A program made the translations under genes and the position numbers. From NCBI GenBank assembly GCA_049969675.1, contig JBMFOP010000004.1, forward strand, positions 1 to 58,113: a stretch of 58,113 nucleotides of DNA, read 5' to 3'. The notes below the pieces were generated by a model that was not told the DNA's origin, did no database searches, and saw only the letters and a program-made list of their open reading frames with translations. Shown here in pieces: positions 6,734 through 56,181 of the stretch; position 1 is the stretch's first letter, and every line of letters begins with the position of its first letter. The DNA is from Myxococcota bacterium. GTDB lineage: Bacteria > Myxococcota > SpSt-1050.

Positions 6734-6766
6734 AATATTTTGATGTAAAAAATTATTTAAAAGTTT

Positions 6767-7714
6767 CTATGCCTCTCTAATATACCCTTTGGAGAGCATA
6801 AATGCTATCGCCTTTGCTACCTCAATATCTGTAAGTGGTGATTTATCCATTACCGCCTTTATCTGACCATAATTAATGATGAGTTGCAAAATATCCAGAT
6901 ATTCAGGCTTGAGTTCCTTTAATGGAGGTGAGATTGGGGTATTGAGAGTAAGCGACCTGTTTGGAGGTGGGATCTGACCTGCGAGCTTCTTGAGTTCATC
7001 CCTCTGGCGAAGCGCCTCCATAAGGAGCACATCCAGGTCCTCATCAATCTCTACTACAAATTTGCGATTGTCGGGTGGGTCAAATCTGTAGCTTCCCTTA
7101 TCCCAGGTGATAATCCTATAGATAGCCTTAACTGGATTAAGCTGATGATTTTCATTGATGCAGGCATAATTTATATGACCCGACTTGAAGAATATCTTCC
7201 CCTCATCCAGACTCTTTATGACAAGGACACCGCTCTTCTTTGAGACGCTGATCATCTGTAAAAGGTCTGCCATTGGTATCTCGGTAAGTGTCCCCTGATT
7301 GATTGAAGGGCCGCCGAGCGTCGTCTTTCGCTGTACCTGTTGTGGCTGATGTCTCTCCTCCTCTTTGACAACCGCCTTATTTATCTTGACCTGACCGACT
7401 ACCTTTTTTACCTCACCACGTTCAAGTCTGAAAAGAGATGTCCCCACAAGAATCCTGTCTCCCTCTTTCAGCCTTACTCTCTTTATTCGCTCACCATTTA
7501 CAAATGTACCATTTGTTGAGCCCAGGTCCTGAATATAAATCTGACCGTTATTGAGCGTTATCTTTGCGTGCATTCTGGAGACCATATCCTCCACAATCAC
7601 AATATCTATATCACTCTTTCTCCCGATGATATACTCGCGGTTATCATCAAGGGGCATCTCTCCACCCTGATACTTACCTGAGATAAACTTTAATACATAA
7701 CCACTGGAAGCCAT
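6767..7714 (-). CDS. FHA domain protein with C-terminal DUF4388 (PATAN-like) domain
   Basis: FHA signature (IGRKSDIDIVIVEDMVSRMHAKI...GSTNGTFVNG). DUF4388-like segment (GTLTEIPMADLLQMISVSKKSGVLVI). Start moved to M21 (ATG at 7714) because GGAGGG lies 6-7 nt upstream and this removes the overlap with the TPR gene. Confidence 0.8.
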   Translation of the reverse strand: MASSGYVLKFISGKYQGGEMPLDDNREYIIGRKSDIDIVIVEDMVSRMHAKITLNNGQIYIQDLGSTNGTFVNGERIKRVRLKEGDRILVGTSLFRLERGEVKKVVGQVKINKAVVKEEERHQPQQVQRKTTLGGPSINQGTLTEIPMADLLQMISVSKKSGVLVIKSLDEGKIFFKSGHINYACINENHQLNPVKAIYRIITWDKGSYRFDPPDNRKFVVEIDEDLDVLLMEALRQRDELKKLAGQIPPPNRSLTLNTPISPPLKELKPEYLDILQLIINYGQIKAVMDKSPLTDIEVAKAIAFMLSKGYIREA

Positions 7715-7727
7715 CTTTGACCCTCCG

Positions 7728-8447
7728 TTATTTGTTGTTGTGTTCATTAATAAGTCTAATATACATCTGTGCATTCTTATTTTCAGGGTCTCTCTTTAAT
7801 ATCTCCTCAAAGTGATACTTTGCCTCATCTATCTTCCCTGCAAGATATAAGAGAACCCCGAGGTTTATTCTTGCATTATTAAAATTTGGATTGGAATTGA
7901 TTATCTCAAGTAGAATCTTAATTGCTTCCTCTCTCTCCCCTTTATCTTTTAAGACCTGAGCGAGCTTGAATTTTATATCCAGATATTCGGGAGCAAAGTC
8001 AAGTGCGCGTCTATATTCCCTCTCTGCAAATAAGAGGTGTCCAGCCCCTTTGAAGATATCACCTATTTCAGCATACATATTGGCAACCTTGCTCTTGAGA
8101 TATGGCTCTATATCACTCGTCTTCCTTGCCTCCATTATCTCCTTCATCTTTCTGTGAACCTGATTTGCCTTTTCATATTCGCCGTGTTCATTATATAGAA
8201 GTGCCAGATTTGTCGCCGCCTCCACATACCCCGGATTCATAGCTACTGCCTCCTCCAGATATCTTCTGGCATTCTCATAGTCATTTCTATGCCAGGCAAT
8301 TACTCCGAGCATATAATACACATCCGCAAATGGTTTGCCTATACGAAGTGCCTCCAGAAGATACCCCTCAGCCTCTTCATATCTGGCAGCCTTAAACAGC
8401 TCTGTTCCTTTCTCCACATACTCTCTAAATTCTAAACTTTGAGACAT
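7728..8447 (-). CDS. Tetratricopeptide repeat protein
   Basis: 239 aa of consecutive TPR-like 34-aa units (A..Y..AL...P....A..NLG). Confidence 0.75.
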   Translation of the reverse strand: MSQSLEFREYVEKGTELFKAARYEEAEGYLLEALRIGKPFADVYYMLGVIAWHRNDYENARRYLEEAVAMNPGYVEAATNLALLYNEHGEYEKANQVHRKMKEIMEARKTSDIEPYLKSKVANMYAEIGDIFKGAGHLLFAEREYRRALDFAPEYLDIKFKLAQVLKDKGEREEAIKILLEIINSNPNFNNARINLGVLLYLAGKIDEAKYHFEEILKRDPENKNAQMYIRLINEHNNK

Positions 8448-8449
8448 AA

Positions 8450-9223
8450 CTACCCCTTTCCTCCGGGTCTATTTAGATTTTGAAGTTTATCCCGATATTT
8501 ACTCCTGGGGAATCTACTGCCCATCTCATTATAGTACTTTTTAAATTCCTCTGTCTTATTTTGCAGATAGAGAGAATAACAGAGATAAAACAGCGCCTCA
8601 TCCATCCCTTCCAATATCCCATAGCTTAATATAATTCCCCTGATCCTCTGCTCTGTTGCCTCAAATTTACCTCTCTTGAAATAGAATTTTGCAACATAAA
8701 GGTCATGACTAATCAACTTCTTGTTTACCTTCTCAAGATATCCCTTTGCCTCACTCTCATATTTTGAGCCCTTATATTTTGATAAAAAATCCAGAAATGC
8801 CTTTTGTGCCTTCTGATTGGAACTCTGGTCCTTCTCATAAGAAGGAGGCAGGAAGAACCAGTCTCCGGGTGCATCCTTAAAATATGAAATCGCCACTCTA
8901 AATGCCGCATAATCTACCATTGGATGTGTCGGATGAAGCTTTATAAACTCCTGATATGCATCAGCGGCATCTATATATTTTTCATCCTCAAAATAGGCAT
9001 CACCAATCTTGAGTTCTGACTCTGTTGCATATCTTGAAAACGGATATTTTGCCTTCACCTGATTAAATCTGTCCACTGCCTCCTGATAATAACCGCCTTT
9101 CAAGGACTTTAATCCCTCCTCAAACTCCTCCTTTGCACTCTCCTGTTCGGATTTTACACCGCCTGTCGTGGCACAACCAAAAAATAAAAAAATAAAAATA
9201 ATTAAATACGGAGATTTATACAT
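8450..9223 (-). CDS. bamD: Outer membrane protein assembly factor BamD (YfiO-like lipoprotein)
   Basis: Lipobox LFFGC at the N-terminus. TPR-like helices follow in the typical BamD pattern (YQEAVDRFNQVKAKYPFSRYATESELKIGDAYF...). Confidence 0.75.
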   Translation of the reverse strand: MYKSPYLIIFIFLFFGCATTGGVKSEQESAKEEFEEGLKSLKGGYYQEAVDRFNQVKAKYPFSRYATESELKIGDAYFEDEKYIDAADAYQEFIKLHPTHPMVDYAAFRVAISYFKDAPGDWFFLPPSYEKDQSSNQKAQKAFLDFLSKYKGSKYESEAKGYLEKVNKKLISHDLYVAKFYFKRGKFEATEQRIRGIILSYGILEGMDEALFYLCYSLYLQNKTEEFKKYYNEMGSRFPRSKYRDKLQNLNRPGGKG

Positions 9224-9327
9224 AGCCTCAGTAGTTATATACTTATAATTTTTGGGTCTTTATGTCAATAAATAATTATGCAGGCTTATCTGATCGAAAC
9301 CGATTTTATCAGATACATTCAACTACA

Positions 9328-10440
9328 TTATCTGGTAGAGTCATCTATACCAGATATTATATGGAACTCCACCCTCCTATTCAGCGCCCTGCCCTTCTCT
9401 GTCTTGTTAGATGCAATCGGGACATCAAAGGCATAACCTTTGGCAATCAATCTATCGGGCTCTATCCCTTCAATCTTGATTAGATGTTCTCTCACAGCAT
9501 TTGCCCTTGCCTCTGAAAGCCTTTTATTATATGCCCTACCGCCCACATTGTCTGTATGTCCCTGCACCTCTACCTTAAATTGTGGATTGTCTTTTAAGAC
9601 CTGTGCTACCTGATGGAGGAGTTCGTAAGAGTCTTTTAATATCTTTGACTTACCGGTTGCAAAGTGCACCTGTTCCTTGATCTCAATCTGTTTGGACTCC
9701 TTATTAACTACGACAAGGGTGTATTTTTTTGGACAGCCCTTCTCCTCGGGTATACCAGCCTCCTTCGGGCACTGGTCATCCGGGTCACATATACCATCGC
9801 CATCTGTATCTGGACAACCCTGACAGGCTGGTATTCCGGGGATTGTTGGGCATTTATCCTTATCATCAACAATCCCATCGCCATCTGTATCTGGACAACC
9901 CTCAAATTGCGGAGGTCCAGGGACATCCGGGCATTTATCCTTATCATCAGTTATCCCATCGCCGTCTCTATCAGGTGGTGGACAACCATTGAAATCAACT
10001 GTCCCATAATCATTGGGGCATTTATCTTCACAATCCATTATCCCATCATTGTCTGTATCAATTTTACAGAGATCTATCTCCTTCTTCGCTATTACAACTG
10101 GCTTTGGAGGTTCCTTTACGAGGACCTTAACGGGCATACACAACTCGGGATTTTTATTTACAATATCAAGTGCCTTTGCAGTATAAATCTTTGCCTCGGC
10201 TATATGTTTATCAGCCATCACAGAATTTCCCTCTGAAGATTCATCTGATGCAAATCTGAGCTCCGATTCAGCAATGGCGGTCTCCATAGGGGCACACTTC
10301 TTTGAACCCTTCTCTATAGCTGTATTCAGGTCCTTCTGAAGGGCCGCAACCTGAGCATTTATGACACTGCTGGTTGTACAGCTAAACCATATAAGAGCCG
10401 GCAAAGAAAGAAGAAGAACTATATTCAATCTCTTCATCAT
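9328..10440 (-). CDS. OmpA-family lipoprotein with thrombospondin type-3 (Ca-binding) repeats
   Basis: Lipobox WFSC. Repeated DTDGDGI.D..D.CP units. C-terminal OmpA peptidoglycan-binding domain (GHTDNVG...YNKRLSEARANAV...NRRVEF). Confidence 0.9.
   Translation of the reverse strand: MMKRLNIVLLLSLPALIWFSCTTSSVINAQVAALQKDLNTAIEKGSKKCAPMETAIAESELRFASDESSEGNSVMADKHIAEAKIYTAKALDIVNKNPELCMPVKVLVKEPPKPVVIAKKEIDLCKIDTDNDGIMDCEDKCPNDYGTVDFNGCPPPDRDGDGITDDKDKCPDVPGPPQFEGCPDTDGDGIVDDKDKCPTIPGIPACQGCPDTDGDGICDPDDQCPKEAGIPEEKGCPKKYTLVVVNKESKQIEIKEQVHFATGKSKILKDSYELLHQVAQVLKDNPQFKVEVQGHTDNVGGRAYNKRLSEARANAVREHLIKIEGIEPDRLIAKGYAFDVPIASNKTEKGRALNRRVEFHIISGIDDSTR
9794..9949 (-). repeat. Intragenic DNA repeats encoding TSP3 units
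   Basis: CCATCGCCATCTGTATCTGGACAACCCT occurs at 9794-9821 and 9875-9902. GGGCATTTATCCTTATCATCA occurs at 9848-9868 and 9929-9949. The period is 81 bp. Confidence 0.9.
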
Positions 10441-10452
10441 ATCAACCCCTTC

Positions 10453-10842
10453 TCACTGAGTATTTATCTGATTTACTTTTTCGGTTGAATCGGTTGGAGC
10501 AGGTGGATTTATTACTGACGGTCCAGACTCCTGAGCCTTTGCATCATGAGATTTCTTCTGAGCGGCTATCGCCATCTCCTTTGCAATCTCTGCATAATCC
10601 ACTGCCCTCTCAAACTGCCCATACGCCTCCTTCTGTCTTGCCTTATGCAGGAACTCCTCAGCTTTATAGTATTCATAAGGGGCGTACTTCTCTGCATCAA
10701 CAGTCTTTGCAGCCTTAAAATTACTTGCGGCATCATTTATAAGAACTGCTGACCAGATAGGACCAACACAACCTGATACAAAAAGAAAAAATATCCCTGT
10801 AATAATCAAGATTGGTAAGTGTAATCCATAACTTTTTTTCAT
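10453..10842 (-). CDS. DUF4398-like lipoprotein
   Basis: Lipobox VSGC. Helical A/K/E-rich body with AEKYAPYEYYKAEEFLHKA. Commonly paired with OmpA-family genes. Start set to M11 (ATG at 10842) with GGGAG upstream. Confidence 0.65.
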   Translation of the reverse strand: MKKSYGLHLPILIITGIFFLFVSGCVGPIWSAVLINDAASNFKAAKTVDAEKYAPYEYYKAEEFLHKARQKEAYGQFERAVDYAEIAKEMAIAAQKKSHDAKAQESGPSVINPPAPTDSTEKVNQINTQ

Positions 10843-10874
10843 ATCTTTATACTCCCAAAAAATTCTGAACACAA

Positions 10875-11906
10875 TTAAAAATTTCTGTTATACATCAAAA
10901 CCATTCCACCATTAACAGGCTCCATCATCAGATTTTGTGATACATTCTTTGCATCAGATTTCCCTTCAATGAAGTAAAGTACCGTTGCTGAAATCAGACC
11001 GGCAGCCCCTGCCCCATAAAAGATATTTGCAAGCATAGCATAATTCTGGGCATCATCTACCAGACTCTGAACCTCCTGATGTGTCCTTGTAAGATTCTTA
11101 TCACTCTTCAAATCAGACTCTCTGGAGCTCGCCATAACTCCAAACAGAAGACCGGTTCCAACCAGAGCCAGACCAGTTGCTCCCACGATATATGTCCAGA
11201 ATCTCTTCTGACCCTTCTCAAAAACCTTCTCTGTCTTTGTCGGTTCTAAAATATTTAGCGGTTTAGCCTCTTCCTTTTTAACCACATTCATCAACTCTGG
11301 CTTCTTCTGTTCAACAGGCGCAGGTTTTTGTATCTCCACATTAATTTCATTGAGTGAAAAATCCAGTTCAAGTGACTTGTCCGGAGAGACTACAAACTCC
11401 TTATCTATAGGGAGATAACCCTTCTTGGTGAGCGAGAGTGTATATTTCCCGGGCTTCAGTTCAATCGCAAAGGGGGTCTTGCCGATTACCTTACCATTTA
11501 TAGCCACCTCCGCCTCGGAGGGAGTGGAATAGATGCCTACCTGCTGAATCCCCTTCTCCTGTAACTTCTTCTCAAGATTCTGGATAGAGATTAGAATCGT
11601 AGATTTATCTTCAGCATTAGGTGATGCCCTTAGATACTCCCTGAAGAATCTGAGTGCCATTGGTATATTCCCCTCTTTTTCGTATGCCTGTGCAATATTG
11701 TATAGAATGACACTATGTGGATATAATGAATATGCCTTCTGGAACTCCTCAATGGCTTTGTTGTATTCGGATTGTTTATAATATGCCTTCCCGAGCTCAA
11801 AGTGTTTCTTCGCCTCCTCCTTATTTCTCTCATCCTGTGCAAATGATACATTCAAAATACCTGCTACCAGAAGAATCACAACCACTAATTTTAATAATCT
11901 TGACAT
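10875..11906 (-). CDS. Secreted TPR plus PEGA domain protein with a C-terminal membrane anchor
   Basis: Signal peptide, TPR units, a PEGA-like beta domain (GIYSTPSEAEVAINGKVIGKTPFAIELKPGKYTLSLTKKGY), then TM segments. Confidence 0.7.
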   Translation of the reverse strand: MSRLLKLVVVILLVAGILNVSFAQDERNKEEAKKHFELGKAYYKQSEYNKAIEEFQKAYSLYPHSVILYNIAQAYEKEGNIPMALRFFREYLRASPNAEDKSTILISIQNLEKKLQEKGIQQVGIYSTPSEAEVAINGKVIGKTPFAIELKPGKYTLSLTKKGYLPIDKEFVVSPDKSLELDFSLNEINVEIQKPAPVEQKKPELMNVVKKEEAKPLNILEPTKTEKVFEKGQKRFWTYIVGATGLALVGTGLLFGVMASSRESDLKSDKNLTRTHQEVQSLVDDAQNYAMLANIFYGAGAAGLISATVLYFIEGKSDAKNVSQNLMMEPVNGGMVLMYNRNF

Positions 11907-13101: not shown

Positions 13102-13458
13102 ATGAGTGAGATTGCAGGTTTATTAATTTTTACGGCTATAGTTTTTATCTTTGTTGCAGGGATGTGGCTATTTACATTCCTGTTTGGACCAAGGTATCGG
13201 ACAAAAATTAAGTCACAGCCATTTGAATGTGGTCTTGAACCAATCGGTCCAAATAAAACCAGATTTTCTGTTCAGTATTATATTTACGCAATTTTACTCG
13301 TGATATTTGATGTAGAGGTAATCTTTTTGATTCCACTTGCATTTATATTTAGAGAGAATTCAATCTTTATCTATGTGATTATTGCACTATTTTTAATAAC
13401 GGCATTTTTGGGATATGTCTATGCCTATAAGAGGGATGGTTTTAGTTTTGAGGATTAA
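13102..13458 (+). CDS. nuoA: NADH-quinone oxidoreductase subunit A
   Basis: Three TM helices. Conserved PFECGLEP and DVEVIFL motifs. ATG at 13102 is preferred over the TTG-extended ORF starting at 13057. Confidence 0.9.
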   Translation: MSEIAGLLIFTAIVFIFVAGMWLFTFLFGPRYRTKIKSQPFECGLEPIGPNKTRFSVQYYIYAILLVIFDVEVIFLIPLAFIFRENSIFIYVIIALFLITAFLGYVYAYKRDGFSFED

Positions 13459-13463
13459 AAGAG

Positions 13464-13985
13464 ATGGCTGAGGAAGAACTATTAAGAGGTGCAGTAATAA
13501 CATCCAGACTTGATGCATCAATAAATTTCTTTGATAAGGTGCTCAACTGGGCGAGGAAGTACTCCCTGTTTCAATATCCATTTGCGACCGCCTGTTGTGC
13601 AATGGAATATATGACCACAATGGGTCCCAGATATGACCTTGGTAGGTTTGGTGCAGAGGTCCCAAGATTCTCGCCCCGCCAGAGTGACTTACTGTGGGTG
13701 GTGGGGACCATCAGCCACAAGCTCGCCCCGGTGCTCGTTAGAGTCTATGAACAGATGTGCGAACCCAAGTGGGTTATCTCTTATGGTGTATGTGCATCAT
13801 CAGGTGGCTTTTACAACAATTATGCAACTGTTCAGGGGATTGATACTATAATCCCTGTAGATGTCTATATACCTGGTTGCCCTCCAAGGCCAGAGCAGGT
13901 GCTGGACGCGCTGATGCTTCTACAGGAAAAAATAGATAACAGAAAAGCGGATTGGAGATTTTCAAAGAAGAGGGAAGATGAATAA
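13464..13985 (+). CDS. nuoB: NADH-quinone oxidoreductase subunit B
   Basis: N2-cluster cysteines are present (ACCAMEY, CASSGGFY, PGCPPRPE). Confidence 0.96.
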   Translation: MAEEELLRGAVITSRLDASINFFDKVLNWARKYSLFQYPFATACCAMEYMTTMGPRYDLGRFGAEVPRFSPRQSDLLWVVGTISHKLAPVLVRVYEQMCEPKWVISYGVCASSGGFYNNYATVQGIDTIIPVDVYIPGCPPRPEQVLDALMLLQEKIDNRKADWRFSKKREDE

Positions 13986-14484
13986 GGAAATCATAGAGAA
14001 GATAAAGGCGAATTTTGGGCCTGATATAATTTCCTTTGAATTCGGGAGAGATATGCCACTCTTTGTTATAAAGAAGGATTCTATCTTGAGGTTCGTGACT
14101 TTTCTTAAAGAGGATGCAGATATCAGGATGGAGCAGATAACAGATATTACAGCCGTGGACTGGTATCAAAAGAGGGAGCCGAGATTTGAGGTTGTATATC
14201 ACTTCTATTCATATACCCATAATCATAGATTGAGAGTCAAAGTTGGTCTGAGTGAGGATGATGCAAGGATCTCAACTATCACAGGTATTTTTAGTGGGGC
14301 GAATTGGTTTGAGAGGGAGTGCTGGGATATGTATGGGATAGTCTTTTTAAATCATCCTGATTTGAGAAGGATATTATTATATCCCGAATTTGTCGGACAT
14401 CCACTTCGCAAGGATTACCCTGTAGATAAGAGGCAGCCACTTGTTAAGTTGAGAAAGCCGGAGGATAGACGTGAAAGACCCTGA
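13978..14484 (+). CDS. nuoC: NADH-quinone oxidoreductase subunit C
   Basis: 30-kDa subunit motifs (NWFERECWDMYGIVF..HPDLRRIL). Overlaps the end of nuoB. Confidence 0.94.
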   Translation: MNKEIIEKIKANFGPDIISFEFGRDMPLFVIKKDSILRFVTFLKEDADIRMEQITDITAVDWYQKREPRFEVVYHFYSYTHNHRLRVKVGLSEDDARISTITGIFSGANWFERECWDMYGIVFLNHPDLRRILLYPEFVGHPLRKDYPVDKRQPLVKLRKPEDRRERP

Positions 14485-15655
14485 GAGCAGAGTACAGGAA
14501 ATCACAATAAATATGGGACCTTCTCATCCAGCCATGCACGGGACTATTAGATTGCTTGTAACACTTGCCGGGGAGAGGGTTTTGAAGTGCGATACACAGA
14601 TTGGATATCTTCACAGGGCTTTTGAGAAGATGTCTGAGGCAAATGTCTGGCAGGCAATATTTCCATATACAGACAGGCTCAATTATGTAAGCCCACTTAT
14701 GAACAATGTTGGATATGCGCAGGCAGTGGAGAAATTGATAGGTATTGAGATACCTGAGAGGACAAAGTATATTCGCGTGCTCATCTGTGAATTATCTAGA
14801 ATTGCAGATCACCTTACCTGTATCGCCGCCGCATCTATGGAACTCGGGGCTTTTACCGTTTTTCTATATTGTATGGAGGCAAGAGACCTAATATGGGATA
14901 GGATTGAGGAGCTGAGCGGTGCCAGAGTAACACCAGCCTATGTCAGAATAGGAGGTCTTGCAAGAGACCTGCCAGAGGGATTTTGTGAGCGGACGATGGG
15001 GATTTTACCAAAGATAGAGAAGTTGATAAAAGACATTGACGACCTGTTGACAGATAATCCTATTTTTATTGAGCGAAATAGAGATGTAGGTAAGATTTCA
15101 CCCTCTGATGCAATTGAGATTGGATTTACCGGTCCCTGTCTCAGGTCAACGGGTGTGAAACACGATTTGAGAAAGAGATCGCCTTATCTGATTTATGACA
15201 GATTGGAATTTGATATTCCGGTTGGGACAAAGGGGGATAATTATGATAGATATATGGTCAGAATGGAGGAGATGCGACAGTCAATAAGGATTATCAGGCA
15301 GGTAATTAGGGATATGCCAGATGGAAAAATAAATATAGATGATACTATGTATATCCTCCCTCCAAAAGAGGAGGTCTATAATACAATAGAAGGTGTTGTA
15401 AATCACTTCAAACTTATTATAGATGGGATTCAGGTCCCAGCAGGTGAGATATACGATTGTACTGAGGCGGCAAATGGTGAGCTCGGCTTCTATCTCGTCT
15501 CTGATGGGGGAGGTAAACCGATTAAGTGCAGGGTGAGGTCCCCATCCTTTGCCCTGATGCAGGGGCTTGAGAAGATGATAGTTGGTTCATATCTGGCAGA
15601 TATTATTCCAACATTCGGTTCAATAAATATGATAGGGGGGGAGTGTGATAGATAG
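14471..15655 (+). CDS. nuoD: NADH-quinone oxidoreductase subunit D
   Basis: 49-kDa subunit motifs (NMGPSHPAMHGT, GYLHRAFEK, RIADHL, ends GECDR). GTG start overlaps nuoC. Confidence 0.96.
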   Translation: MKDPESRVQEITINMGPSHPAMHGTIRLLVTLAGERVLKCDTQIGYLHRAFEKMSEANVWQAIFPYTDRLNYVSPLMNNVGYAQAVEKLIGIEIPERTKYIRVLICELSRIADHLTCIAAASMELGAFTVFLYCMEARDLIWDRIEELSGARVTPAYVRIGGLARDLPEGFCERTMGILPKIEKLIKDIDDLLTDNPIFIERNRDVGKISPSDAIEIGFTGPCLRSTGVKHDLRKRSPYLIYDRLEFDIPVGTKGDNYDRYMVRMEEMRQSIRIIRQVIRDMPDGKINIDDTMYILPPKEEVYNTIEGVVNHFKLIIDGIQVPAGEIYDCTEAANGELGFYLVSDGGGKPIKCRVRSPSFALMQGLEKMIVGSYLADIIPTFGSINMIGGECDR

Positions 15656-33794: not shown

Positions 33795-34925
33795 CTAACT
33801 ATTAATTCCATAAAAGGGGAAGATATTCTTTTCATAGAAATTGAGAATCCTCTCTGCCTCTTTTCTTGCAATATCTTTCTCCGGGCCGGATACAAATAGA
33901 TTCATATCTTTTAGACTACCTAATGTGTGCTCCAGACTACCCATAAATGTTCCACCAAGCATAAGTGAGGAGTAGTCCTCTGTCTCAATCTCATTAATCA
34001 CTGCCCATGCGAGTGTATATCCGCGTACTATGTTGTCGGGGTTGTAGCCTCCTCCTCCAAATGCAACCAACTTCTTAGAATGCTCTGTTATAATCTTTAC
34101 AGCTTCAATATATGAATTGTTTGTAAGTCTTAGATGTGTGAGTGGGTCTGTGCTCATCATATCTACACCTATCTGTGCAATGGTGATGTCGGGGTCAAAC
34201 CTGTTGATTATAGGAGGAAAGATATTCTTAAATAGAAAGAGGAATACCTCATCATCAGAATATCCATTGAGTGGAATATTTAGATTATAGAATCTCCCCT
34301 TATCTTCTCCAAGTTCATCTTCAAATCCAGAGAATGGGAATAAGGTCTTCCCTGATTCATGAAATGACATCTTCAATACATCTGGATTTGAATAGAATCC
34401 ATTCTGTATTCCATCTCCGTGATGGGCATCTATATCAATATAGAATATCCTCTTCTTCTCTCTCAAGAGGAGTTCAATCAATATCCCGATGTCATTTATA
34501 TAACAAAATCCTGATGCGCGCTCTCTCATCGCATGATGTAGTCCACCCACAGGGACAAATATTCTGTCTGCATCATTAAGTCGTAAAAATGACTCATATG
34601 CCATTGCTGAGTGCAAAAGTGCCACATCAAATATCCCCTTAAAGACTGGGTTGTCTGGCAACCCGATTCCGTATTGTAAAAATTCAGCTTCTATCTCGCC
34701 AGTATTTGCGATTTTTAATATGTCTGTGTATTTATTGGTGTGAAAGAGTCTTATATGCTCCTCTCTCCCATTATCCTGTAAAATTATCTGATGCTCTCCA
34801 ATAAGATTTAGCCTGTGAGCGGAGTTAAGAAAGAGTTTGCCCCTATCCAATCTGAATGGATGATTTACTCCATATGAATACCTCTCAAATCTTTCGGAAT
34901 AAATTATCTTACAAACAGGTTGCAT
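33795..34925 (-). CDS. Histone deacetylase-family (AcuC-like) Zn-dependent deacylase
   Basis: Motifs GGLHHAMRERASGFCYINDI and IDIDAHHGDGIQ. 1-nt gap from the upstream gene. Confidence 0.9.
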   Translation of the reverse strand: MQPVCKIIYSERFERYSYGVNHPFRLDRGKLFLNSAHRLNLIGEHQIILQDNGREEHIRLFHTNKYTDILKIANTGEIEAEFLQYGIGLPDNPVFKGIFDVALLHSAMAYESFLRLNDADRIFVPVGGLHHAMRERASGFCYINDIGILIELLLREKKRIFYIDIDAHHGDGIQNGFYSNPDVLKMSFHESGKTLFPFSGFEDELGEDKGRFYNLNIPLNGYSDDEVFLFLFKNIFPPIINRFDPDITIAQIGVDMMSTDPLTHLRLTNNSYIEAVKIITEHSKKLVAFGGGGYNPDNIVRGYTLAWAVINEIETEDYSSLMLGGTFMGSLEHTLGSLKDMNLFVSGPEKDIARKEAERILNFYEKNIFPFYGINS

Positions 34926-34926
34926 A

Positions 34927-36768
34927 TCAGAATTTTACTTTGAGAGAATATGTGTCCTCATCCAGTTTTGTCTCAATCTTCATATCAATCTTGTAGAATA
35001 CTCTTAGCATCTTTTTATTGGTTGCCAGAACCTCAGCCTTGAATCCGCTAATCCCTCGCTCCATGGCTATCTGGGCAATATATTTTAGCATATATGTCCC
35101 GATTCCACGGTTCTGGTAGTCGTCTCTCACCACAATTGCCACCTCGGCAAAATTATCCGATGGGTCTCTATTGTATCTCACTATTCCGATTATCTCTTCA
35201 TTCTCCGGGGGGCCTATTATTGCCACAATTGCCATCTCATCCTGATAATCAATATTTACAAGATGCTGAAGTTTCTCATGTGGGAGTGCCTTGAGGTACG
35301 AGAAGAATCTAAAATAGATAGTCTCATCAGAAAGTCTATAGAAGAACTCCCTCTCAAGTGGTTCATCTGTCGCCTTAATTGGCCTGAAAAATACGGTGAG
35401 ATCTCCAAATTTCTTGTATCTCTCATATTGTTGTGGATAGTACTTCCCCATCGGTGTAAGTGGGAGCTGGTCTTTTGGAACATATCTGAGTTCCTTTGCC
35501 TCTTCAAGCAACTTATCTCTAAAATCTGGATGGGCAATGGCTATTAATTGCATCGCCCTATCTCTGATATTCTTACCGTGCAGGTATGCAACTCCATATT
35601 CGGTGATTACATAATGTACATCGGCTCTTGATGTCACAACTCCAGCACCAGGTGGGAGTTTTGATACAATCCTTGAGACGGTTCCTCCTTTTGCAGTGGA
35701 TGGCATAACTATAATAGGTTTTCCACCTTTACTTCTGGATGCGCCCCTGATAAAATCCACCTGCCCACCAAATCCAGAATAGAAGTAATATCCGATAGAG
35801 TCAGCTACTACCTGTCCGGTGAGGTCAATCTGAATCGCCCCATTTATTGAGACCATCTTATCATTCTGGGCAATGATGAAAGGGTCGTTTGTGTATTCAA
35901 TAGGATGAAATTCAATTAAGGGGTTGTTATCTACAAATTGATATAACTTTTTAGTTCCCATGCAGAAGGAGGCGATCACTTTATCTCTGTGAATTGTCTT
36001 GAGTTTATTTGTGATATTTCCATTCTCTATCAATTCAATAATCCCATCCGAGAACATCTCTGTATGCACACCAAGGTCGTTTTTATTTTTTAATTCGTTT
36101 AGTGTCGCATCAGGAATCGTCCCGATGCCTACCTGAATGGTGGAACCATCCTCAATCAACTTTGAGACATTCTTCCCTATTTTGATGGCGATATCATTTG
36201 GTTTTGGATGTTTGAGTTCAATAAGCGGTGTGTCTGTCTCTACTATATAATCAATCTGCGAGATATGGATGAATGAATCTCCGAGTGTACGAGGCATCTG
36301 ACTATTTATCTCTGCGACTACTATCTTTGCATTCTCAGCCGCAGCCTTTACTATATCTACATTTACCCCATAACTACAGAAGCCATATTTGTCCGGGGGC
36401 GTCACTGAGATGATTGCAATATCAATCTTGATCCTTTTCTTCTTAAAGAGGTCAGGGATTTCAGAGAGGAAGATGGGTATATAATCGCCCCTACCCTGCT
36501 GTATGGCATCCCTGATGGTAGGACCTATAAAAAGTGCACAGTATCTTACATTCTTCTTGAACGGCTCCTCATGATATGGTGTGAGTCCAAGGGTCAGAAT
36601 ATGTAGAATCTCCATATCCTCTGTGTACATAATCTTCTCATTGATCGCCTTAATAATAGTCCTCGGCTCTGCTGCACCGGAGCCCAGAAATAGCCTCATC
36701 CCCGGCTTAATTAATTCAGCAATAGTCTCAGCTGATTTGACTTTATCTCTGTATTTTTCAGGCACCAT
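34927..36768 (-). CDS. Fusion protein: acetyl-CoA hydrolase/transferase (4-hydroxybutyrate CoA-transferase-like) domain plus Pat-type GNAT acyltransferase domain
   Basis: The N-terminal ~430 aa carries the CoA-transferase signature (INGAIQIDLTGQVVADS...SGFGGQVDFIRGA). The C-terminal ~160 aa is GNAT (FRPIKATDEPLEREFFYRLSDETIYFRFF ... VRDDYQNRGIGTYML). Confidence 0.8.
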   Translation of the reverse strand: MVPEKYRDKVKSAETIAELIKPGMRLFLGSGAAEPRTIIKAINEKIMYTEDMEILHILTLGLTPYHEEPFKKNVRYCALFIGPTIRDAIQQGRGDYIPIFLSEIPDLFKKKRIKIDIAIISVTPPDKYGFCSYGVNVDIVKAAAENAKIVVAEINSQMPRTLGDSFIHISQIDYIVETDTPLIELKHPKPNDIAIKIGKNVSKLIEDGSTIQVGIGTIPDATLNELKNKNDLGVHTEMFSDGIIELIENGNITNKLKTIHRDKVIASFCMGTKKLYQFVDNNPLIEFHPIEYTNDPFIIAQNDKMVSINGAIQIDLTGQVVADSIGYYFYSGFGGQVDFIRGASRSKGGKPIIVMPSTAKGGTVSRIVSKLPPGAGVVTSRADVHYVITEYGVAYLHGKNIRDRAMQLIAIAHPDFRDKLLEEAKELRYVPKDQLPLTPMGKYYPQQYERYKKFGDLTVFFRPIKATDEPLEREFFYRLSDETIYFRFFSYLKALPHEKLQHLVNIDYQDEMAIVAIIGPPENEEIIGIVRYNRDPSDNFAEVAIVVRDDYQNRGIGTYMLKYIAQIAMERGISGFKAEVLATNKKMLRVFYKIDMKIETKLDEDTYSLKVKF

Positions 36769-36771
36769 ATA

Positions 36772-39147
36772 CTATTCTCCTTTTGGATTCCCTCTGATAT
36801 TGAATAGGGTATATAACAAAATTCCAAGCGAGATTGATGCCAGCTTGCTTTGCGATGTGTCCCCACGGGATGTTAGAATCAGTGGCACCTTCCCACCTAC
36901 TACCACACCGGCTATTTTGGCGTGGCTTGAGACTGTTAGAGTCTTGTAAATAATGTTGCCTGCCTCAATATCTGGCATAATCAGTATATCTGCATCTCCC
37001 CTGATCTTCCCCTGATATCTCTTCTCCTCAGCAATTCTGGGATTGATGGCTACATCCACGGAGAGTGGGCCCTCAATTATATACTCATTGGTATTGGAGA
37101 GTTCATCTGCTATCTCCTTTGCCTCAACAGAGGAAGCGACAGATGGATTTACCTTCTCAACCGCGGATATTATAGCAATCTTTGGGCATCTAATATTGAG
37201 GGCATTGGCCACAGATATTGAGTTCTGAATTATCTTCTTCTTTGCGTTCTTATTGGGGGCTGGATTGATCGCTGCATCAGATATAAGGAGTAACTTTGGA
37301 TATGCTGGAATCTCAAATACACCTACATGTGAGAGAAAGACCTTCTCATCAGGCTTGAGCATTGATTTGGTAGTCTCAATAAATGCCCTCATAATCTGTT
37401 CTGTCATTATTGAGCCTTTCATAAGCATATTTACAACCCCATTTTTATAAAGCGACATAGCCTTCTGAACAGGGTCATCAGCGTCAATTATTGCAAAGTT
37501 ATCATTATCAATGATGATGTCATAATCCCATGCAATCTGAGATATCTCCGCAAAAGGACCAATCAGCAAAAACTTTGCAATCCTGAATCTTCCCTCTGAG
37601 TTTGCGAGATTTGCTGCCCCAATTGCCTCTTCATTATTCCCACCCACTATTCCTATACGAGGGCACCCATATTTTGTTGCCACTTCCTTAGCCATAAAGA
37701 TTATATCATTGATACATCGGGCTGGCATCTGAGGTTTCACTCGCAATACAGGAGTATCAAAGAGCTTAATATCAAGTGTCTTTTTAAGGTTATTGAGATT
37801 CCTATAAAAGATCAACTTCTCTTTGGAATAGTCCTTCAGCCTTTCAGGATTTAATCTGGAGAGGATATTTTCAGTGATGAGCAATTCAATGTCAAATGTC
37901 TCATTGAAGGAAATCATAGGCGTTTGAAGGTTGATTCTCTCTGAAATGTTCTGAATGATCTCGTTGGACCTGGAGAGCCCGCCTGAGACCGCGATAACAA
38001 TGGGTAATCCCTTCTCGGATGCCGCTGACATAATAGAACGGGCAATGACGCCAGAGAAGAAATCAATTATCAGGTTTATCTTTTTCTTCTGGGCATCATT
38101 TGAACCCATATCTCTAAAGTCTATGAGTGTCTTGAAATCATTGGTACCCGCTAAACTCAATAGCCCACCTTCATTATATGCAAGCCTTTTGAGCTCTTCT
38201 ATGGAGATTCTACCATTTTTGATCTCATCCAGTAATATCTCAACCGGAATATTTCCAGCCCTATTTGAGCCGGGCATATCAGAGAAGGAATTCAGGACCT
38301 CGGTTATCCTCCCCTTGTTATGTCTTGCTGTTGAGATTCCGCCACCAGCGTGAGTGGTAATAAATATCCCATCCTCATAATTTATTCCAATCAATCCGGA
38401 GATCAGACGTGCAATACTTCTGTGGTTTAGATAATGAGCACCAGAGCCCTTTCGGAAATATCCATTTACTCCAAGCAGCCTGTTTGAGTCGCCCATCTCA
38501 TCTGTAGATATTGGGTCTGTGGTGGTGATCAGTATATTCTCCTTTTTTATCCTATCTCTGAGTAATGATGCTATCAGTATCCCGTAATTTGAGGGGTGTT
38601 CAATAGGAGATGCTGCTGCATCTTTTACCATCTCTGCATCTACAATAAATGTCCCTCCCGCTGCAGGATGTAGGTATCCACCTTTTACCGCTATCCCATA
38701 TATCATCTCATTAGAGATTCTATTATTCTGAAGCCAGGTGCGAATCTGATTTGCCCTGAATTCTGCATCAGTATTTTGTTGTACCGGCAGGGGGATATCC
38801 TCCTTGATGTACAGTCTCCTTCCAGAGAATGCTGCAACCTTTGTAGATGTGTTTTGAGGAATGATTGCAATAGTTATCTCATTATCAGATATCTGTAAAA
38901 GGGAATCTCTCTGATGGGCAGCGAATATCTCAAGGACTTTTGAGGAATTTTCTGGTCTTGAAAGCTGCGAAATCTGCCTGTTGAGTAATGATTCTATTTT
39001 TTGCTTTAATTCAAAGTATATAATTTTACTCTCAACCCTCTCAAGGAATTCAAATAATTTTCTTGTAAGATCCGGTGCATATTGAATATCAGTTCTCTCA
39101 AGTCTGTTTATTGTCTCCATTATTTCAGAGGGAAGCACTCTATCCAT
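36772..39147 (-). CDS. Fusion protein: N-terminal helical domain plus butyrate (acyl) kinase plus phosphate butyryl/acetyltransferase
   Basis: Buk-like motifs IAIIPQNTSTKVA, HPSNYG, FITTHAGGGIS, LAGTNDF, IAVSGGLS. Ptb-like motifs MLMKGSIMT, LSHVGVFEIP..PKLLLISDAAINPAP, IEGPLSVDVA, ADILIMPDIEAGNIIYK. AAGGAGG RBS. Confidence 0.82.
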   Translation of the reverse strand: MDRVLPSEIMETINRLERTDIQYAPDLTRKLFEFLERVESKIIYFELKQKIESLLNRQISQLSRPENSSKVLEIFAAHQRDSLLQISDNEITIAIIPQNTSTKVAAFSGRRLYIKEDIPLPVQQNTDAEFRANQIRTWLQNNRISNEMIYGIAVKGGYLHPAAGGTFIVDAEMVKDAAASPIEHPSNYGILIASLLRDRIKKENILITTTDPISTDEMGDSNRLLGVNGYFRKGSGAHYLNHRSIARLISGLIGINYEDGIFITTHAGGGISTARHNKGRITEVLNSFSDMPGSNRAGNIPVEILLDEIKNGRISIEELKRLAYNEGGLLSLAGTNDFKTLIDFRDMGSNDAQKKKINLIIDFFSGVIARSIMSAASEKGLPIVIAVSGGLSRSNEIIQNISERINLQTPMISFNETFDIELLITENILSRLNPERLKDYSKEKLIFYRNLNNLKKTLDIKLFDTPVLRVKPQMPARCINDIIFMAKEVATKYGCPRIGIVGGNNEEAIGAANLANSEGRFRIAKFLLIGPFAEISQIAWDYDIIIDNDNFAIIDADDPVQKAMSLYKNGVVNMLMKGSIMTEQIMRAFIETTKSMLKPDEKVFLSHVGVFEIPAYPKLLLISDAAINPAPNKNAKKKIIQNSISVANALNIRCPKIAIISAVEKVNPSVASSVEAKEIADELSNTNEYIIEGPLSVDVAINPRIAEEKRYQGKIRGDADILIMPDIEAGNIIYKTLTVSSHAKIAGVVVGGKVPLILTSRGDTSQSKLASISLGILLYTLFNIRGNPKGE

Positions 39148-39229
39148 AATAACCTCCTTATAAATACCCTCCCCTGATATATTTTCTGGTTAAGTGATTT
39201 AATGGTGAAATACAAACCATCGGCCTGTC

Positions 39230-39258
39230 TATATAGAGTATAGGTTTCAGGATGTCAA
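39230..39258 (-). promoter_or_regulatory. Sigma70-type promoter for the kinase-PTA / CoA-transferase-GNAT / deacylase operon
   Basis: On the minus strand: TTGACA (39258-39253), 17-nt spacer, TATATA (39235-39230). It lies about 80 nt upstream of the ATG at 39147. Confidence 0.6.
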
Positions 39259-39289: not shown

Positions 39290-39874
39290 TTATCTTGATT
39301 TGAGTTCTAAGAGTACGAGTTTGGCGATGGCTTTTAATGTCTCAAATACACCGATACCCTTTGAAGCCACTGCCTCAAAGTCGGGGACATTCCTGTAATT
39401 GAGTGCCTTTCTGAGCTCGGCAACAGGCATCACATTTGGAAGGTCTCTCTTGTTGTACTGGATAACAAATGGCATTTTGTCAAGGTCAAATCCATGTTCT
39501 TTAAGGTTGGTCTTTAGATTATCAAGTGATTCAAGATTTGCCTCCATCCTCTCAATCTGTGAATCCGCAACAAATACCACCCCATCAGCACCTTTTAATA
39601 TCAGCTTTCTGGAGGCGTCATAAAATACCTGCCCCGGGACCGTGTAGAGATGGAATCTGGTCTTAAAGCCCTTTATATCTCCAAGAGATAGAGGGAGGAA
39701 ATCAAAGAAGAGTGTCCTCTCTGTCTCTGTAGCAAGAGATATCAGCTTCCCCTTCGCGGCTGGATTGGTCTTTGCATAGATATATTGAAGATTGGTCGTC
39801 TTTCCACAAAGTCCTGGCCCATAATAGACAATCTTACAATTTATTTCTCTGGCAGAATAATTTATAAAAGACAT
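39290..39874 (-). CDS. mglA: Ras-like polarity/motility GTPase MglA
   Basis: [16 protein letters not shown]-loop, [31 protein letters not shown]. Confidence 0.92.
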
Positions 39875-39890
39875 ATATTAGTACCCTAAA

Positions 39891-40376
39891 TTAGAAATCC
39901 CCGAAGAGTTTATCAATATCGCCCTCTGTAATGTCAATGGCGCCCTGCGAATCTTTCTCCTTTTCGGTCTTGGAGAAAATTGCGTCAAATATCTTATTGA
40001 GCTCCTCTGTGGACTTCTTAACCTTTAATCTTACAAGACCCTGATTGGTTCTCTTGTCAAAGATTACCACCAGAATCATTCTTGTACCTATCAGTGATAT
40101 ATGAACTGAATCATTATCCCCTTCGTGGAATAACACTGAAAATTCCTTCTCTCCCAGTAGCTTGGCAAGCCCTCCAGTAGCCGCGACATTTCCAGCCGTA
40201 AGAGAGGCTAAGGATGTGGTATCCATTCTTGAGACATCTCCAGAAACTGCAATCAACTGCCCATTCTTATCAACTATGAAGACGATCTTTGAATTGGATT
40301 CTTTGTATAGTCGGTCACATATAAGCTTTATAGCCTCATATTCCTTTTCGTGTAAAACCAACTGGGGATTAAACAT
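39891..40376 (-). CDS. mglB: Roadblock/LC7 family protein MglB (MglA GAP)
   Basis: 161 aa Roadblock-like fold pattern (IVDKNGQLIA..GD...D...LASLTAGNVAA). Lies immediately upstream of mglA, as in the mglBA operon. Confidence 0.8.
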   Translation of the reverse strand: MFNPQLVLHEKEYEAIKLICDRLYKESNSKIVFIVDKNGQLIAVSGDVSRMDTTSLASLTAGNVAATGGLAKLLGEKEFSVLFHEGDNDSVHISLIGTRMILVVIFDKRTNQGLVRLKVKKSTEELNKIFDAIFSKTEKEKDSQGAIDITEGDIDKLFGDF

Positions 40377-40477
40377 ATAAATACCTTATCAATAAGGGTG
40401 AAACTTCATAAACTAATTATCAGATTGCCAGATTGAATTCAAGTAAAAAATTAACTTTTTCAACAATTCTAAAATAT

Positions 40478-40897
40478 CACTGCTGTCCAAAACAATCTTC
40501 TTTGAGAATTTAACTATTTGTAAAATAAGAATTTTAGATGGGTAAACACATATTTTAAAAGTCAGGTTAGCCCAATGTCCTTTATAATCAATTGAAAGGC
40601 TGTCCAACTTAAGTAAGGGCTAATAATCATTAGCCCCTACAATAGCTACATCTGGCACAACAGGTAAGGTTTCATAGGGTTTATTTATCCATTCCCCCAA
40701 CTCCCTGTATGGTTAATCTATAACCTAAATTGAGCGATTTTTTGTATTGCTGAGGATTGGTAACTTCTACAGAATCAATTTTTTGCCTGAAATTCTCTCT
40801 GGATGTGTTAAAGGACTTTATAATAATCTCCCACCTGTTGGGTGATATTGGGCTAAACCCCAGACTGTGTTTTTTGTCAAATCTTCTCAGCAGGTTA
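40478..40897 (-). repeat. Intergenic repeat family, full-length reference copy B
   Basis: Its reverse complement aligns with copy A (1-276) and copy D (53971-54343), and its head aligns with F1. It contains the hairpin GGGCTAAT-aatc-ATTAGCCC at 40617-40637. The tail CACTGCTGTCCAAAAC starts at 40478. Confidence 0.85.
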
Positions 40898-41220
40898 ACT
40901 CAACAGGTGGATTTTTTCATCTAAAAGATCGATTAGATTAGGTATAAGAAAACTCATAGGTGTTTTGTCTAATAATAAATGTTATAATTAACCCGAATAA
41001 GGGTTTTCATTATATGTCCATTTAAGCGGCATTGATTTTTGGTCATTGTAGGACTTAATGATTTCACCAGATCTTCAATGTTCTGAATGTCTCTTCATCT
41101 CTCTATAATTCTATCTATCTCCGAATTATAAAATTTCACTTCTGAATGTATTTGTGTAATTTGCTTTGCCAACCACTGGGTATTTTGTTTCACCAACTAA
41201 AAATGACAATTTATTCTCTT

Positions 41221-41350
41221 ATTGTAGATTGTTGTGAGAAATGACAGGGTGTTTATTCATAGGAAGCCTCCTTACAGGGTTCTCTTTGAAAAATAATCTT
41301 ACCCTATCAAGATTTTCTTATCTAAAAAAAAATTATTCTGGACAGATGTT
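41221..41350 (+). repeat. Internally deleted short copy of the intergenic repeat (copy H)
   Basis: GATTGTTGTGAGAAATGACAG resembles AATTGTTGAGGGAAATTAGTAG of copy A. The tail is AATTATTCTGGACAGATGTT. It ends 30 bp upstream of the ATG at 41380 and is inverted relative to copy B. Confidence 0.5.
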
Positions 41351-41379
41351 GTCCATTAAAAAATGGTTGAACTTAATAT

Positions 41380-41985
41380 ATGGATAGAATATTATCCATA
41401 AATGTGTATTTTGCCAGAGGGATGTTTATAAGGTTTACACTTCTTATATTTTACCTCTCTTCTGTAATATTCCACAGGAGGGTCAATGAATTTATTGATA
41501 TCTTTTATAAAAAATATTCTTTTGAGAGCACGAATAGGTTCTTTATTTTCTCTCTTATAATTCCGCTAATAGTGATAATTATCCTCTTCTTTTATAAAGC
41601 TCTGAGGAGCGATAAGAGATCTCTAATAATAACACTCTCTCTGGTAATCACCCCTCTATTATTGTTCTATTATATCTTATTTGTATCCAATGTTGAGGCA
41701 GTGCACTACTTTCAATATGCAATAATAGCAGTTATGATTTTTAAAATCTCTGATAACCTGTTATATTCCTTTGTCGCCTCTACAATTCTTGGGGTTGTAG
41801 ATGAGGCATATCAATATTATGTACTTTATGCTGGTGTAAAAGGTCTCTATCTGGACTACAACGATATGCTGTTTAATGTGCATGGGGCGATAATAGGGCT
41901 TGTCTTTTATTTAATAGTTACAGAGAATATTTTTAATAGTAGAGTGAGGTCTGGTATTGTGGCAAGATTGGGGGATTCTTTGTAG
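41380..41985 (+). CDS. VanZ-like family membrane protein
   Basis: About 5 TM helices. The pattern VEAVHYFQYA ... GVVDEAYQYY ... YNDMLFNVHGAIIG is consistent with VanZ-like motifs. The start codon is uncertain. Confidence 0.5.
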   Translation: MDRILSINVYFARGMFIRFTLLIFYLSSVIFHRRVNEFIDIFYKKYSFESTNRFFIFSLIIPLIVIIILFFYKALRSDKRSLIITLSLVITPLLLFYYILFVSNVEAVHYFQYAIIAVMIFKISDNLLYSFVASTILGVVDEAYQYYVLYAGVKGLYLDYNDMLFNVHGAIIGLVFYLIVTENIFNSRVRSGIVARLGDSL

Positions 41986-42075
41986 ATTCTGGTATTTTTG
42001 AGCTGGTTTGAAATTACTTGACCAGATATATTTATTTGGCTATGTAAAAAGGGACTTTTTTGAAAGGAGTTTAAA

Positions 42076-56048: not shown

Positions 56049-56121
<73 letters not shown>

Positions 56122-56181
56122 CATCTCCTCCCTTGAAATCTTTTTACCCCCAAACCCTTATGCTGGTAAAGATTAGATATT

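Follow-up and report, generated by a model that had tools for sequence, protein, structure and literature searches.

Three genes lying close together on the minus strand of a 58,113-nt stretch of DNA from a Myxococcota bacterium (contig JBMFOP010000004.1; this whole stretch is called the window, and coordinates refer to its full length) encode a butyrate-kinase-like/phosphate butyryltransferase fusion (gene 1; Buk then Ptb, here BukPtb), a fusion of a CoA-transferase (CoAT) with a Pat-type GNAT domain (gene 2, CoAT-GNAT) and a zinc-dependent deacylase of the HDAC type (gene 3). The three genes probably (roughly 55%) form one unit, a node for the exchange of short-chain acyl-CoA and acid that carries its own reversible lysine-acylation control. 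This reading builds on the domain content, catalytic residues and conserved linkage seen in the sequences, from which we infer protein-directed acylation by the GNAT. In its favor are intact residues in the CoAT, GNAT, HDAC and Ptb domains, the tight gaps between the genes, the conservation of the trio, a control on the occurrence of HDAC genes, a module with an ADP-forming acyl-CoA synthetase (ACD), and a precedent in Thermus. Genes 1 and 2 are separated by 3 nt (36769-36771), and genes 2 and 3 by 1 nt (34926). A preliminary description of the region had listed three minus-strand open reading frames (ORFs), and their sizes and gaps are exactly as it gave them; its domain calls for all three proteins are also correct, as judged by Pfam, NCBIfam and PDB matches (Table 1).

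Domain content and catalytic residues

The N-terminal part of gene 2 is matched by the Pfam families AcetylCoA_hydro (2e-33, 116 bits) and AcetylCoA_hyd_C (3e-68, 229 bits), both above the gathering score. Its best solved-structure match is the Thermus thermophilus CoA-transferase TtCoAT (TT_C1083, PDB 9VAG), with 54% identity over 428 aa (E 7e-151). The AlphaFold2 (AF2) model of gene 2 (pLDDT 83.7, pTM 0.82) has the CoA-transferase fold, with Foldseek TMt values of 0.88-0.93 to 3eh7 (0.93), 3gk7, 2oas and RipA. The predicted catalytic glutamate, E237, is matched in alignments by residue 238 of C. aminobutyricum AbfT (3gk7) and by Y. pestis RipA E249, the residue mutated in PDB 4n8k and 4n8l. 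Residue conservation was scored in an 80-member alignment of the fusion family (A3), collected independently by word search. The GTDB loci considered below were collected with the peptide pattern HTEMFSDG and are therefore unsuited to judging the conservation of E237, for which A3 was used. In this alignment the GGQxDF motif (GGQVDF, residues 334-339 of gene 2) is invariant, and the position of E237 is Glu in 79/80 members. From these residues, the CoAT looks catalytically competent for the exchange acid + acyl-CoA -> acyl-CoA + acid. That a CoA-transferase takes the position of the ACD-like domain of Pat, as proposed in the preliminary description, is upheld; the idea of a degenerate sensor is not, because the catalytic Glu is retained in nearly all members. 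The equivalog model that would fix the substrates (TIGR03948, butyryl-CoA:acetate CoA-transferase) is missed, at 306.8 vs. 674.8 bits. Pfam matches of gene 2 to DeoRC and CoA_trans were rejected as a separate domain, as they are weak and lie under the CoA-transferase domain. Residues 50-100 (36469-36621), in the N-terminal half of the CoA-transferase, are a weak spot (pLDDT ~46-55) of an AF2 model that is confident in other parts.

The remainder of gene 2 is a GNAT, found by Acetyltransf_1 (7e-12) and, over residues 458-594, by the NCBIfam model of mycobacterial Pat (3.6e-22). It aligns with residues 709-876 of E. coli PatZ (9it0, E 1.4e-23), with further matches to slPatA (4nxy, 3e-19) and MtPat (4ava, 2e-10), and it superposes on the S. 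lividans PatA GNAT (4u5y) with a Foldseek TMt of 0.91. All solved-structure matches of the GNAT below E 1e-6 are protein lysine acetyltransferases (PatZ, slPatA, MtPat and Sulfolobus Pat). The homology to PatZ starts in the linker (YYPQQ vs. PYPHQ, Y444-P445 being equivalent to PatZ Y710-P711) and runs through to the C-terminus. E542 corresponds to PatZ E809, and R487 and F489 to the gating motif residues R754 and F756; alanine mutants of all three PatZ residues lose activity (PMC12184503). The PatZ P-loop (G822-G824; motif Q/R-x-x-G-x-G/A) is matched by QNRGIG at 552-557. Conservation among the 80 members is high, with 75 Glu and 5 Asp at E542, 80/80 for each of R487, F489 and G555, and 79/80 for G557. 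No Pfam match to ATP-grasp_5, Succ_CoA_lig or CoA_binding, the hallmark of type I/II Pat, was found in gene 2. By sequence criteria the GNAT is a complete Pat-type protein acyltransferase domain, in agreement with the Pat-type assignment made earlier.

Gene 3 matches Hist_deacetyl in Pfam (1.4e-70, 238 bits) and no NCBIfam model. Its closest structure is Aquifex HDLP (1c3r, 5.7e-61), followed by HDAC1/2/3/8. Aligned to HDLP, it retains H130-H131, D166, H168, D255 and Y294 (in GGGGY), which we take to be, respectively, the His dyad, the three zinc ligands and the catalytic Tyr. Judged by these residues, gene 3 encodes a class-I-like zinc deacylase that is complete, and the zinc deacylase of the preliminary description is confirmed to this extent. 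In L081, a 94%-identical relative of the window, an extra 824-aa gene without a Pfam match lies at 13138-15612, between the deacylase gene and a convergent MFS transporter gene; in the window the deacylase and MFS transporter genes are 12 nt apart and the 824-aa gene is missing.

Gene 1 belongs to a rare type of fusion, with Buk followed by Ptb, which was found in 31 proteins by protein search and in 46 metagenome loci. The Ptb half matches PTA_PTB in Pfam (E 5.6e-34, 118 bits) and the Ptb model TIGR02706 (7.8e-67), the latter under the equivalog cut-off (225.5 vs. 410.5). Residues 497-777 match Ptb 7vg9 and residues 557-773 match 1yco (phosphate butyryl-/branched-chain transacylases). The segment S760-R761-G762-D763 is invariant in 22/22 family members, and by sequence the domain is an intact phosphate acyltransferase, with the reaction acyl-CoA + Pi -> acyl-phosphate + CoA. 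The butyrate kinase region (residues 93-426) is matched by NF002834 (8e-55) and TIGR02707 (1e-46), with both curated cut-offs missed (186.3 vs. 222 and 159.5 vs. 289.1, respectively). The closest solved structure, for residues 94-444, is T. maritima Buk2 (1saz, 5.6e-34), and the AF2 model of gene 1 has pLDDT 82.3.

The kinase half carries replacements in its PHOSPHATE1 motif. With M. thermophila acetate kinase (MtACK) as reference, I96, Q98 and N99 replace N7, G9 and S10, and K155 stands at the Arg91 equivalent. N7 and S10 are hallmark catalytic residues of acetate kinase (PMC4390882). T100, S101 and K103 of PHOSPHATE1 are retained, as are PHOSPHATE2 (THAGGGIS, 265-272), the R241 equivalent (SNRAGN, 294-299) and the ADENOSINE motif (VSGGLS, 387-392). 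All stand-alone butyrate kinases fetched, as well as BukPtb fusions in the second gene order described below (order B), have (I/V)NPGSTSTK, (C/G)RGG and PG..E.E. The window and the related loci L081-L084 carry I(I/V)P(Q/G)NTSTK, VKGGY and NETFDxE (VNSFDxE in L083 and L084). This set of replacements in PHOSPHATE1 and at the Arg91 equivalent is confined to the window clade. Kinase competence in the window is uncertain because the equivalents of N7, G9, S10 and R91 are replaced, and the kinase half of this clade may be impaired or altered.

The segment around the kinase loop with the R241 equivalent (residues 289-334, 38146-38283) has AF2 pLDDT <50 in a model that is confident in other parts, and the loop is two residues shorter in gene 1 than in stand-alone butyrate kinases. 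Degenerate PHOSPHATE1 motifs, such as NPGFMTTKA, NPTTGSTRV and IDPSVSSTNV, are also seen in other Buk-Ptb lineages (L043, L085, L102, L111, L113, L116, L117 and L124). The R241 equivalent is His in L111, L113 and L116, and SRGD of the Ptb half is invariant throughout. The kinase half of Buk-Ptb fusions may be drifting repeatedly towards a non-catalytic role.

Ahead of the kinase fold, gene 1 has an N-terminal extension (aa 1-88) with no family match, in which AF2 predicts helices at 7-18, 25-37, 41-62 and 65-85 (pLDDT 73-92). An N-terminal extension of ~93-177 aa is present in every BukPtb fusion linked to CoAT-GNAT. As a marker of this linkage it was discarded as not diagnostic, since it also occurs in unlinked L111, L114 and L116.

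Table 1. Features of the three-gene locus and of related loci, with positions in the window unless a locus is named.
Feature	Position	Strand	Basis
Gene 1, butyrate-kinase-like / phosphate butyryltransferase fusion, 791 aa	36772..39147	-	ORF, Pfam, NCBIfam, PDB matches
Gene 1 N-terminal extension, aa 1-88, predicted four-helix segment	38884..39147	-	AF2
Gene 1 butyrate-kinase-like (ASKHA) domain, aa 91-445	37813..38877	-	NCBIfam, PDB matches
Gene 1 deviant PHOSPHATE1 motif IIPQNTSTK, aa 95-103	38839..38865	-	Canonical INPGSTSTK
Gene 1 phosphate butyryltransferase domain, aa 480-784	36796..37710	-	PTA_PTB
Gene 2, CoA-transferase / Pat-type GNAT fusion, 613 aa	34927..36768	-	ORF, Pfam, NCBIfam, AF2, Foldseek
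Gene 2 CoA-transferase domain, aa 4-432, 4-hydroxybutyrate / butyryl-CoA:acetate subfamily	35473..36759	-	54% identity to TtCoAT
E237 codon GAG, predicted CoA-transferase catalytic glutamate, in GVHTEMFSDG	36058..36060	-	
Gene 2 Pat-type linker + GNAT domain, aa 443-613	34930..35442	-	PatZ alignment
E542 codon GAG, equivalent of PatZ catalytic E809 (slPatA E123)	35143..35145	-	
Gene 3, HDLP/AcuC-type (class I-like) zinc-dependent deacylase, 376 aa	33795..34925	-	Pfam, PDB match
Shine-Dalgarno AAGGAGG, 5 nt ahead of gene 1 ATG (39147)	39153..39159	-	
Promoter-like TTGACA-17-TATATA in the 142-nt mglA/gene 1 spacer	39230..39258	-	Consensus match
AMP-forming synthetase neighbors of the fusion	L067:11877-13823, L073:5883-7565, L077:4514-6196, L080:2703-4655		

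Distribution of the fusion and conservation of its partners

The best 120 of >8000 matches to CoAT-GNAT are all fusions of ~620 aa. The fusion is encoded by at least 600 species representatives across bacteria and archaea, including Planctomycetota, Verrucomicrobiota, Desulfobacterota, Anaerolineae, Thermoplasmata (Thermoplasmatota), Methanomassiliicoccales and Asgard archaea. No description of it was found in the open-access literature, in line with the earlier remark that the arrangement is uncharacterized.

Two lineages keep the trio, each with its own gene order. The window and L081-L084 have order A (gene 1, gene 2, gene 3), with Buk domains that are 66-83% identical. In order B, gene 2 comes first, followed by gene 3 and gene 1; this arrangement occurs in L001, L086, L089, L090, L093-L095, L105, L120, L127 and L128, and in versions cut by a contig end in L091, L092 and L118. 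Identity between order B and the window is 36-41% in the Buk domain, 37-44% in the HDAC and ~61% in the CoAT. NCBI assigns the order-B proteins to Krumholzibacteria/Krumholzibacteriota by name, and relatives of the window clade bear the name Deltaproteobacteria bacterium. Whether the trio is conserved was a question raised in the preliminary description, and it is answered by this recurrence in a second, distant lineage with a different gene order. HDAC genes are present in 13/17 CoAT-linked Buk/Ptb loci. As a control, they were found in 3/63 Buk/Ptb-anchored loci without a CoAT match (611 kb), and all three of these are edge-cut order-B contigs. Except for this internal control of 63 vs. 17 Buk/Ptb loci, chance expectations for gene adjacency are rough; metagenome loci do not equal independent genomes, and many neighborhoods are cut by contig ends.

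Immediate neighbors of the fusion were identified with a Pfam scan of 60-64 species loci. The commonest upstream neighbor is an ACD (CoA_binding_2 + Succ_CoA_lig + ATP-grasp_5), which by tblastn lies directly upstream of the fusion on the same strand, with a gap <300 nt, in 13/65 species loci. The phosphohistidine motif SHTGSLAG is present in the four ACDs checked. HDAC, ACD and CoAT-GNAT follow each other in this order on one strand in L020 (Brocadiaceae, 6695-11824) and L046 (Planctomycetales, 6647-11818), and the order ACD, fusion, HDAC is found on one strand in L042 (7371-13431), a Planctomycetota-type metagenome-assembled genome. For the high-GC loci L020, L046 and L101, tblastn coordinates were used, as simple ORF calls there gave spurious antisense ORFs. 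BukPtb in the window fills the position that ACD has in other phyla, with the same net reaction and different chemistry. Thus, from the BukPtb, ACD and HDAC neighbor data, the recurrent partners of the fusion are a zinc deacylase and an ATP-linked acyl-CoA/acid enzyme.

In four Methanomassiliicoccales loci, the fusion is convergent with an AMP-forming acetyl/acyl-CoA synthetase carrying PKT(R/L)SGKI (Table 1). Such synthetases are the classical Pat substrate class, the motif lysine being acetylated by Pat enzymes. It might be that type I Pat, with an ACD-like domain and a GNAT, arose from an ACD/fusion neighborhood.

Relation to known systems and alternative readings

In Thermus, according to a 2025 preprint, TtCoAT moves CoA from acetyl-CoA to several short-chain acids, making propionyl- and butyryl-CoA, and is required for growth on butyrate (10.1101/2025.10.31.685773). 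The GNAT TT_C1711 acetylates TtCoAT as its major target protein, and the acetyl group is removed by TT_C0104, a metal-dependent (zinc) deacetylase sensitive to inhibition by butyrate; acetylation lifts the inhibition of TtCoAT by an NAD+-sensing alanine-dehydrogenase-like partner (10.1101/2025.10.31.685773). The Thermus components are three separate proteins with distant locus tags, whereas in the window CoAT and GNAT are fused and the genes are clustered. No NAD+-sensing partner is seen at the window operon, and the Thermus system is without a kinase/phosphotransacylase partner such as gene 1. By analogy, genes 2 and 3 would be a fused, clustered version of the writer/eraser/CoA-transferase relationship of Thermus.

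Type I Pat enzymes (E. coli PatZ and S. enterica Pat) share with gene 2 a homologous linker and GNAT, and a large N-terminal acyl-CoA-binding domain. In PatZ this domain binds acetyl-CoA and activates the GNAT (PMC12184503). However, the N-terminal domain of PatZ and Pat is an inactive ACD-like domain, whereas that of gene 2 is a CoA-transferase of family I in which the catalytic Glu is present, and the eraser of the Pat systems is the sirtuin CobB, in contrast to the zinc HDAC-type enzyme next to gene 2. Five architectures of bacterial lysine acetyltransferases are described, none with a CoA-transferase domain (PMC8556138, PMC12184503). By its domain composition gene 2 is outside types I-V, and neither does it have the small ligand-binding domain of type III. 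B. subtilis acuABC (AcuA GNAT and AcuC deacetylase, controlling the acetyl-CoA synthetase AcsA) resembles the window operon in pairing a writer gene with that of a class-I-like zinc eraser, beside the gene of an enzyme that links a short-chain acid to its CoA ester in both directions (PMC8556138). The GNAT AcuA has a single domain, in contrast to the gene 2 fusion, no AcuB-like gene is found in the window operon, and the neighbor of acuABC is an AMP-forming synthetase rather than a Buk-Ptb fusion. The ptb-buk operons of Clostridium and Enterococcus hold the same two families as gene 1 (Ptb like 1yco/7vg9, Buk like 1saz), but at the ptb-buk loci L130-L160 these are separate genes, usually ptb then buk, while gene 1 is one polypeptide with Buk then Ptb, an 88-aa helical N-terminal extension and the deviant PHOSPHATE1 of the window clade. 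The parts come from ordinary families; it is the fusion, with its broad occurrence and conserved partners, that is uncharacterized.

We propose that the CoA-transferase domain of gene 2 has a double role. It would act as a pathway enzyme and also as an acyl-CoA-binding partner, through which the attached GNAT responds to changes in the acyl-CoA pool, as PatZ does through its ACD-like domain. The GNAT would acylate lysines on enzymes of the same node, whether the gene 1 product, acyl-CoA synthetases or, as in Thermus, its own CoA-transferase domain, and the gene 3 deacylase would reverse this acylation. Gene 1 would occupy the position of an enzyme that forms acid + ATP from acyl-CoA, a position held by ACD in other phyla.

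Several points weigh against such a regulated exchange node. HDAC lies directly downstream of CoAT-GNAT in 6/68 species loci, and BukPtb is found in 2/35 CoAT-GNAT species loci; the fusion is therefore independent of these partners, as most CoAT-GNAT genes lack them. Gene 1 may, from its replaced motif residues, neither make nor use ATP. The main acetylated lysine of TtCoAT, K5, is D8 in gene 2 and variable in the family, and was rejected as a conserved acylation target; the neighboring K9 is conserved, but is basic in stand-alone CoA-transferases too. TT_C1711 and TT_C0104 are likened to the GNAT and HDAC here by description, not by sequence. Finally, the fusion family is known from sequence, and what the GNAT modifies, and with which acyl group, lies beyond what sequence can tell.

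Donor supply, as favored in the preliminary description, is an alternative in which gene 1 and the CoA-transferase mainly feed butyryl-/propionyl-CoA to the GNAT in a self-contained module for butyrylation or propionylation of multiple proteins. The three genes are co-localized and conserved together, TtCoAT yields propionyl- and butyryl-CoA from acetyl-CoA, and the order-B relatives have canonical kinase motifs, all of which would suit donor supply. However, most fusions are without such a partner, and in other phyla BukPtb is replaced by ACD, the usual direction of which is towards acid + ATP. In the window clade the kinase is also without some hallmark PHOSPHATE1 residues and the Arg91 equivalent (PMC4390882). 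Nor is the acyl-chain preference of the GNAT readable from sequence, and the butyrylation or propionylation that had been suggested cannot be inferred from it. Because the kinase deviates in this clade and other phyla have ACD where the window has BukPtb, donor supply by gene 1, the weakest step of the preliminary description, appears unlikely and is ranked below a regulated exchange node. Gene 1 is better seen as a pathway partner or target, since what the loci have in common is an enzyme that yields acid + ATP from acyl-CoA.

Less probable again is that the CoA-transferase domain serves mainly as an allosteric acyl-CoA sensor and oligomerization scaffold of a general protein acetyltransferase, to which genes 1 and 3 are loosely coupled and whose main targets are AMP-forming acyl-CoA synthetases, as for PatZ and SePat. 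The GNAT and linker are homologous to those of PatZ, with its acetyl-CoA-binding, GNAT-activating N-terminal domain (PMC12184503), AMP-forming synthetases with the acetylation motif adjoin the fusion in Methanomassiliicoccales, and most fusions stand alone. The presence of the catalytic Glu and GGQxDF in 79-80/80 members nevertheless argues for retained activity, unlike a pseudoenzyme sensor, and the linkage of the fusion to HDAC, ACD and BukPtb is tight and repeated. A purely metabolic function seems the least probable, with BukPtb and the CoA-transferase as an ATP-conserving fermentative route for short-chain acids, and the GNAT and HDAC-type enzymes acting on small molecules. A CoA-transferase with Ptb-Buk or ACD would indeed make a complete route from acyl-CoA to acid + ATP, and the HDAC and GNAT superfamilies each include small-molecule enzymes. 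Against this, the GNAT structure matches below E 1e-6 are to protein lysine acetyltransferases throughout, the nearest structures to gene 3 are HDLP and class I HDACs, and the homologous Thermus system targets protein lysines.

With the regulated exchange node as the preferred reading, the repeated linkage of the fusion to a zinc deacylase and to acyl-CoA/acid enzymes suggests a general circuit, judged from gene neighborhoods, in which short-chain fatty-acid metabolism is coupled to protein acylation. The cluster points to an overlooked microbial tie between protein modification and fatty-acid metabolism, because the writer is a widespread but unstudied fusion; the 2025 Thermus study shows such a relationship to exist between unfused proteins. 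A wider reading is speculative and, taken as a whole, rather doubtful: CoAT-GNAT would add a sixth architecture, so far overlooked, to the protein lysine acyltransferases of prokaryotes, with a working CoA-transferase as regulatory domain, the acyl group written on proteins (acetyl, propionyl or butyryl) would directly mirror the short-chain acids and CoA esters at hand, the mark would be erased by a butyrate-sensitive zinc deacylase, and BukPtb or ACD would be the controlled target. The locus offers a compact three-gene system for asking how protein acylation, in kind and in extent, depends on the make-up of the acyl-CoA pool. Further questions are whether ADP-forming synthetases or kinase/phosphotransacylases are controlled by acylation, and how an acyltransferase benefits from a catalytically active regulatory domain.

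Expression signals and surroundings of the locus

AAGGAGA lies within the 3' end of gene 1, ahead of the gene 2 ATG, and the gene 3 ATG follows one base after the gene 2 stop; this spacing fits with translational coupling of the genes. Upstream on the same strand are mglA (39290-39874) and mglB (39891-40376). The preliminary description had given the three genes their own promoter. The string, with TTGACA at 39258-39253, a 17-nt spacer and TATATA at 39235-39230, is indeed present, but it was missed by a promoter scan because the second hexamer is without the conserved final T, and promoter-like matches in this A+T-rich region are near chance (36 observed vs. 26.7 +/- 5.1 expected). The promoter is therefore a mere consensus match, and was set aside as proof of an independent transcription unit. 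No terminator-like site was found in the spacer between mglA and gene 1, so read-through from mglBA into gene 1 may occur.

The link to mglBA that had been pointed out holds for the window, where the genes are upstream and on the same strand, but is lineage-specific. MglB/MglA genes are adjacent solely in the close relatives L081-L083 and are absent from all order-B loci, and mglBA was therefore rejected as part of the module. Approximately 1 kb of A+T-rich DNA lies 5' of mglB (40377-41379; GC 0.34 for 40001-42000), with no ORF >=65 aa and no Rfam match. The sole RNA gene in the window, by Rfam and tRNA scans, is a tRNA-Phe (GAA) at 56049-56122.

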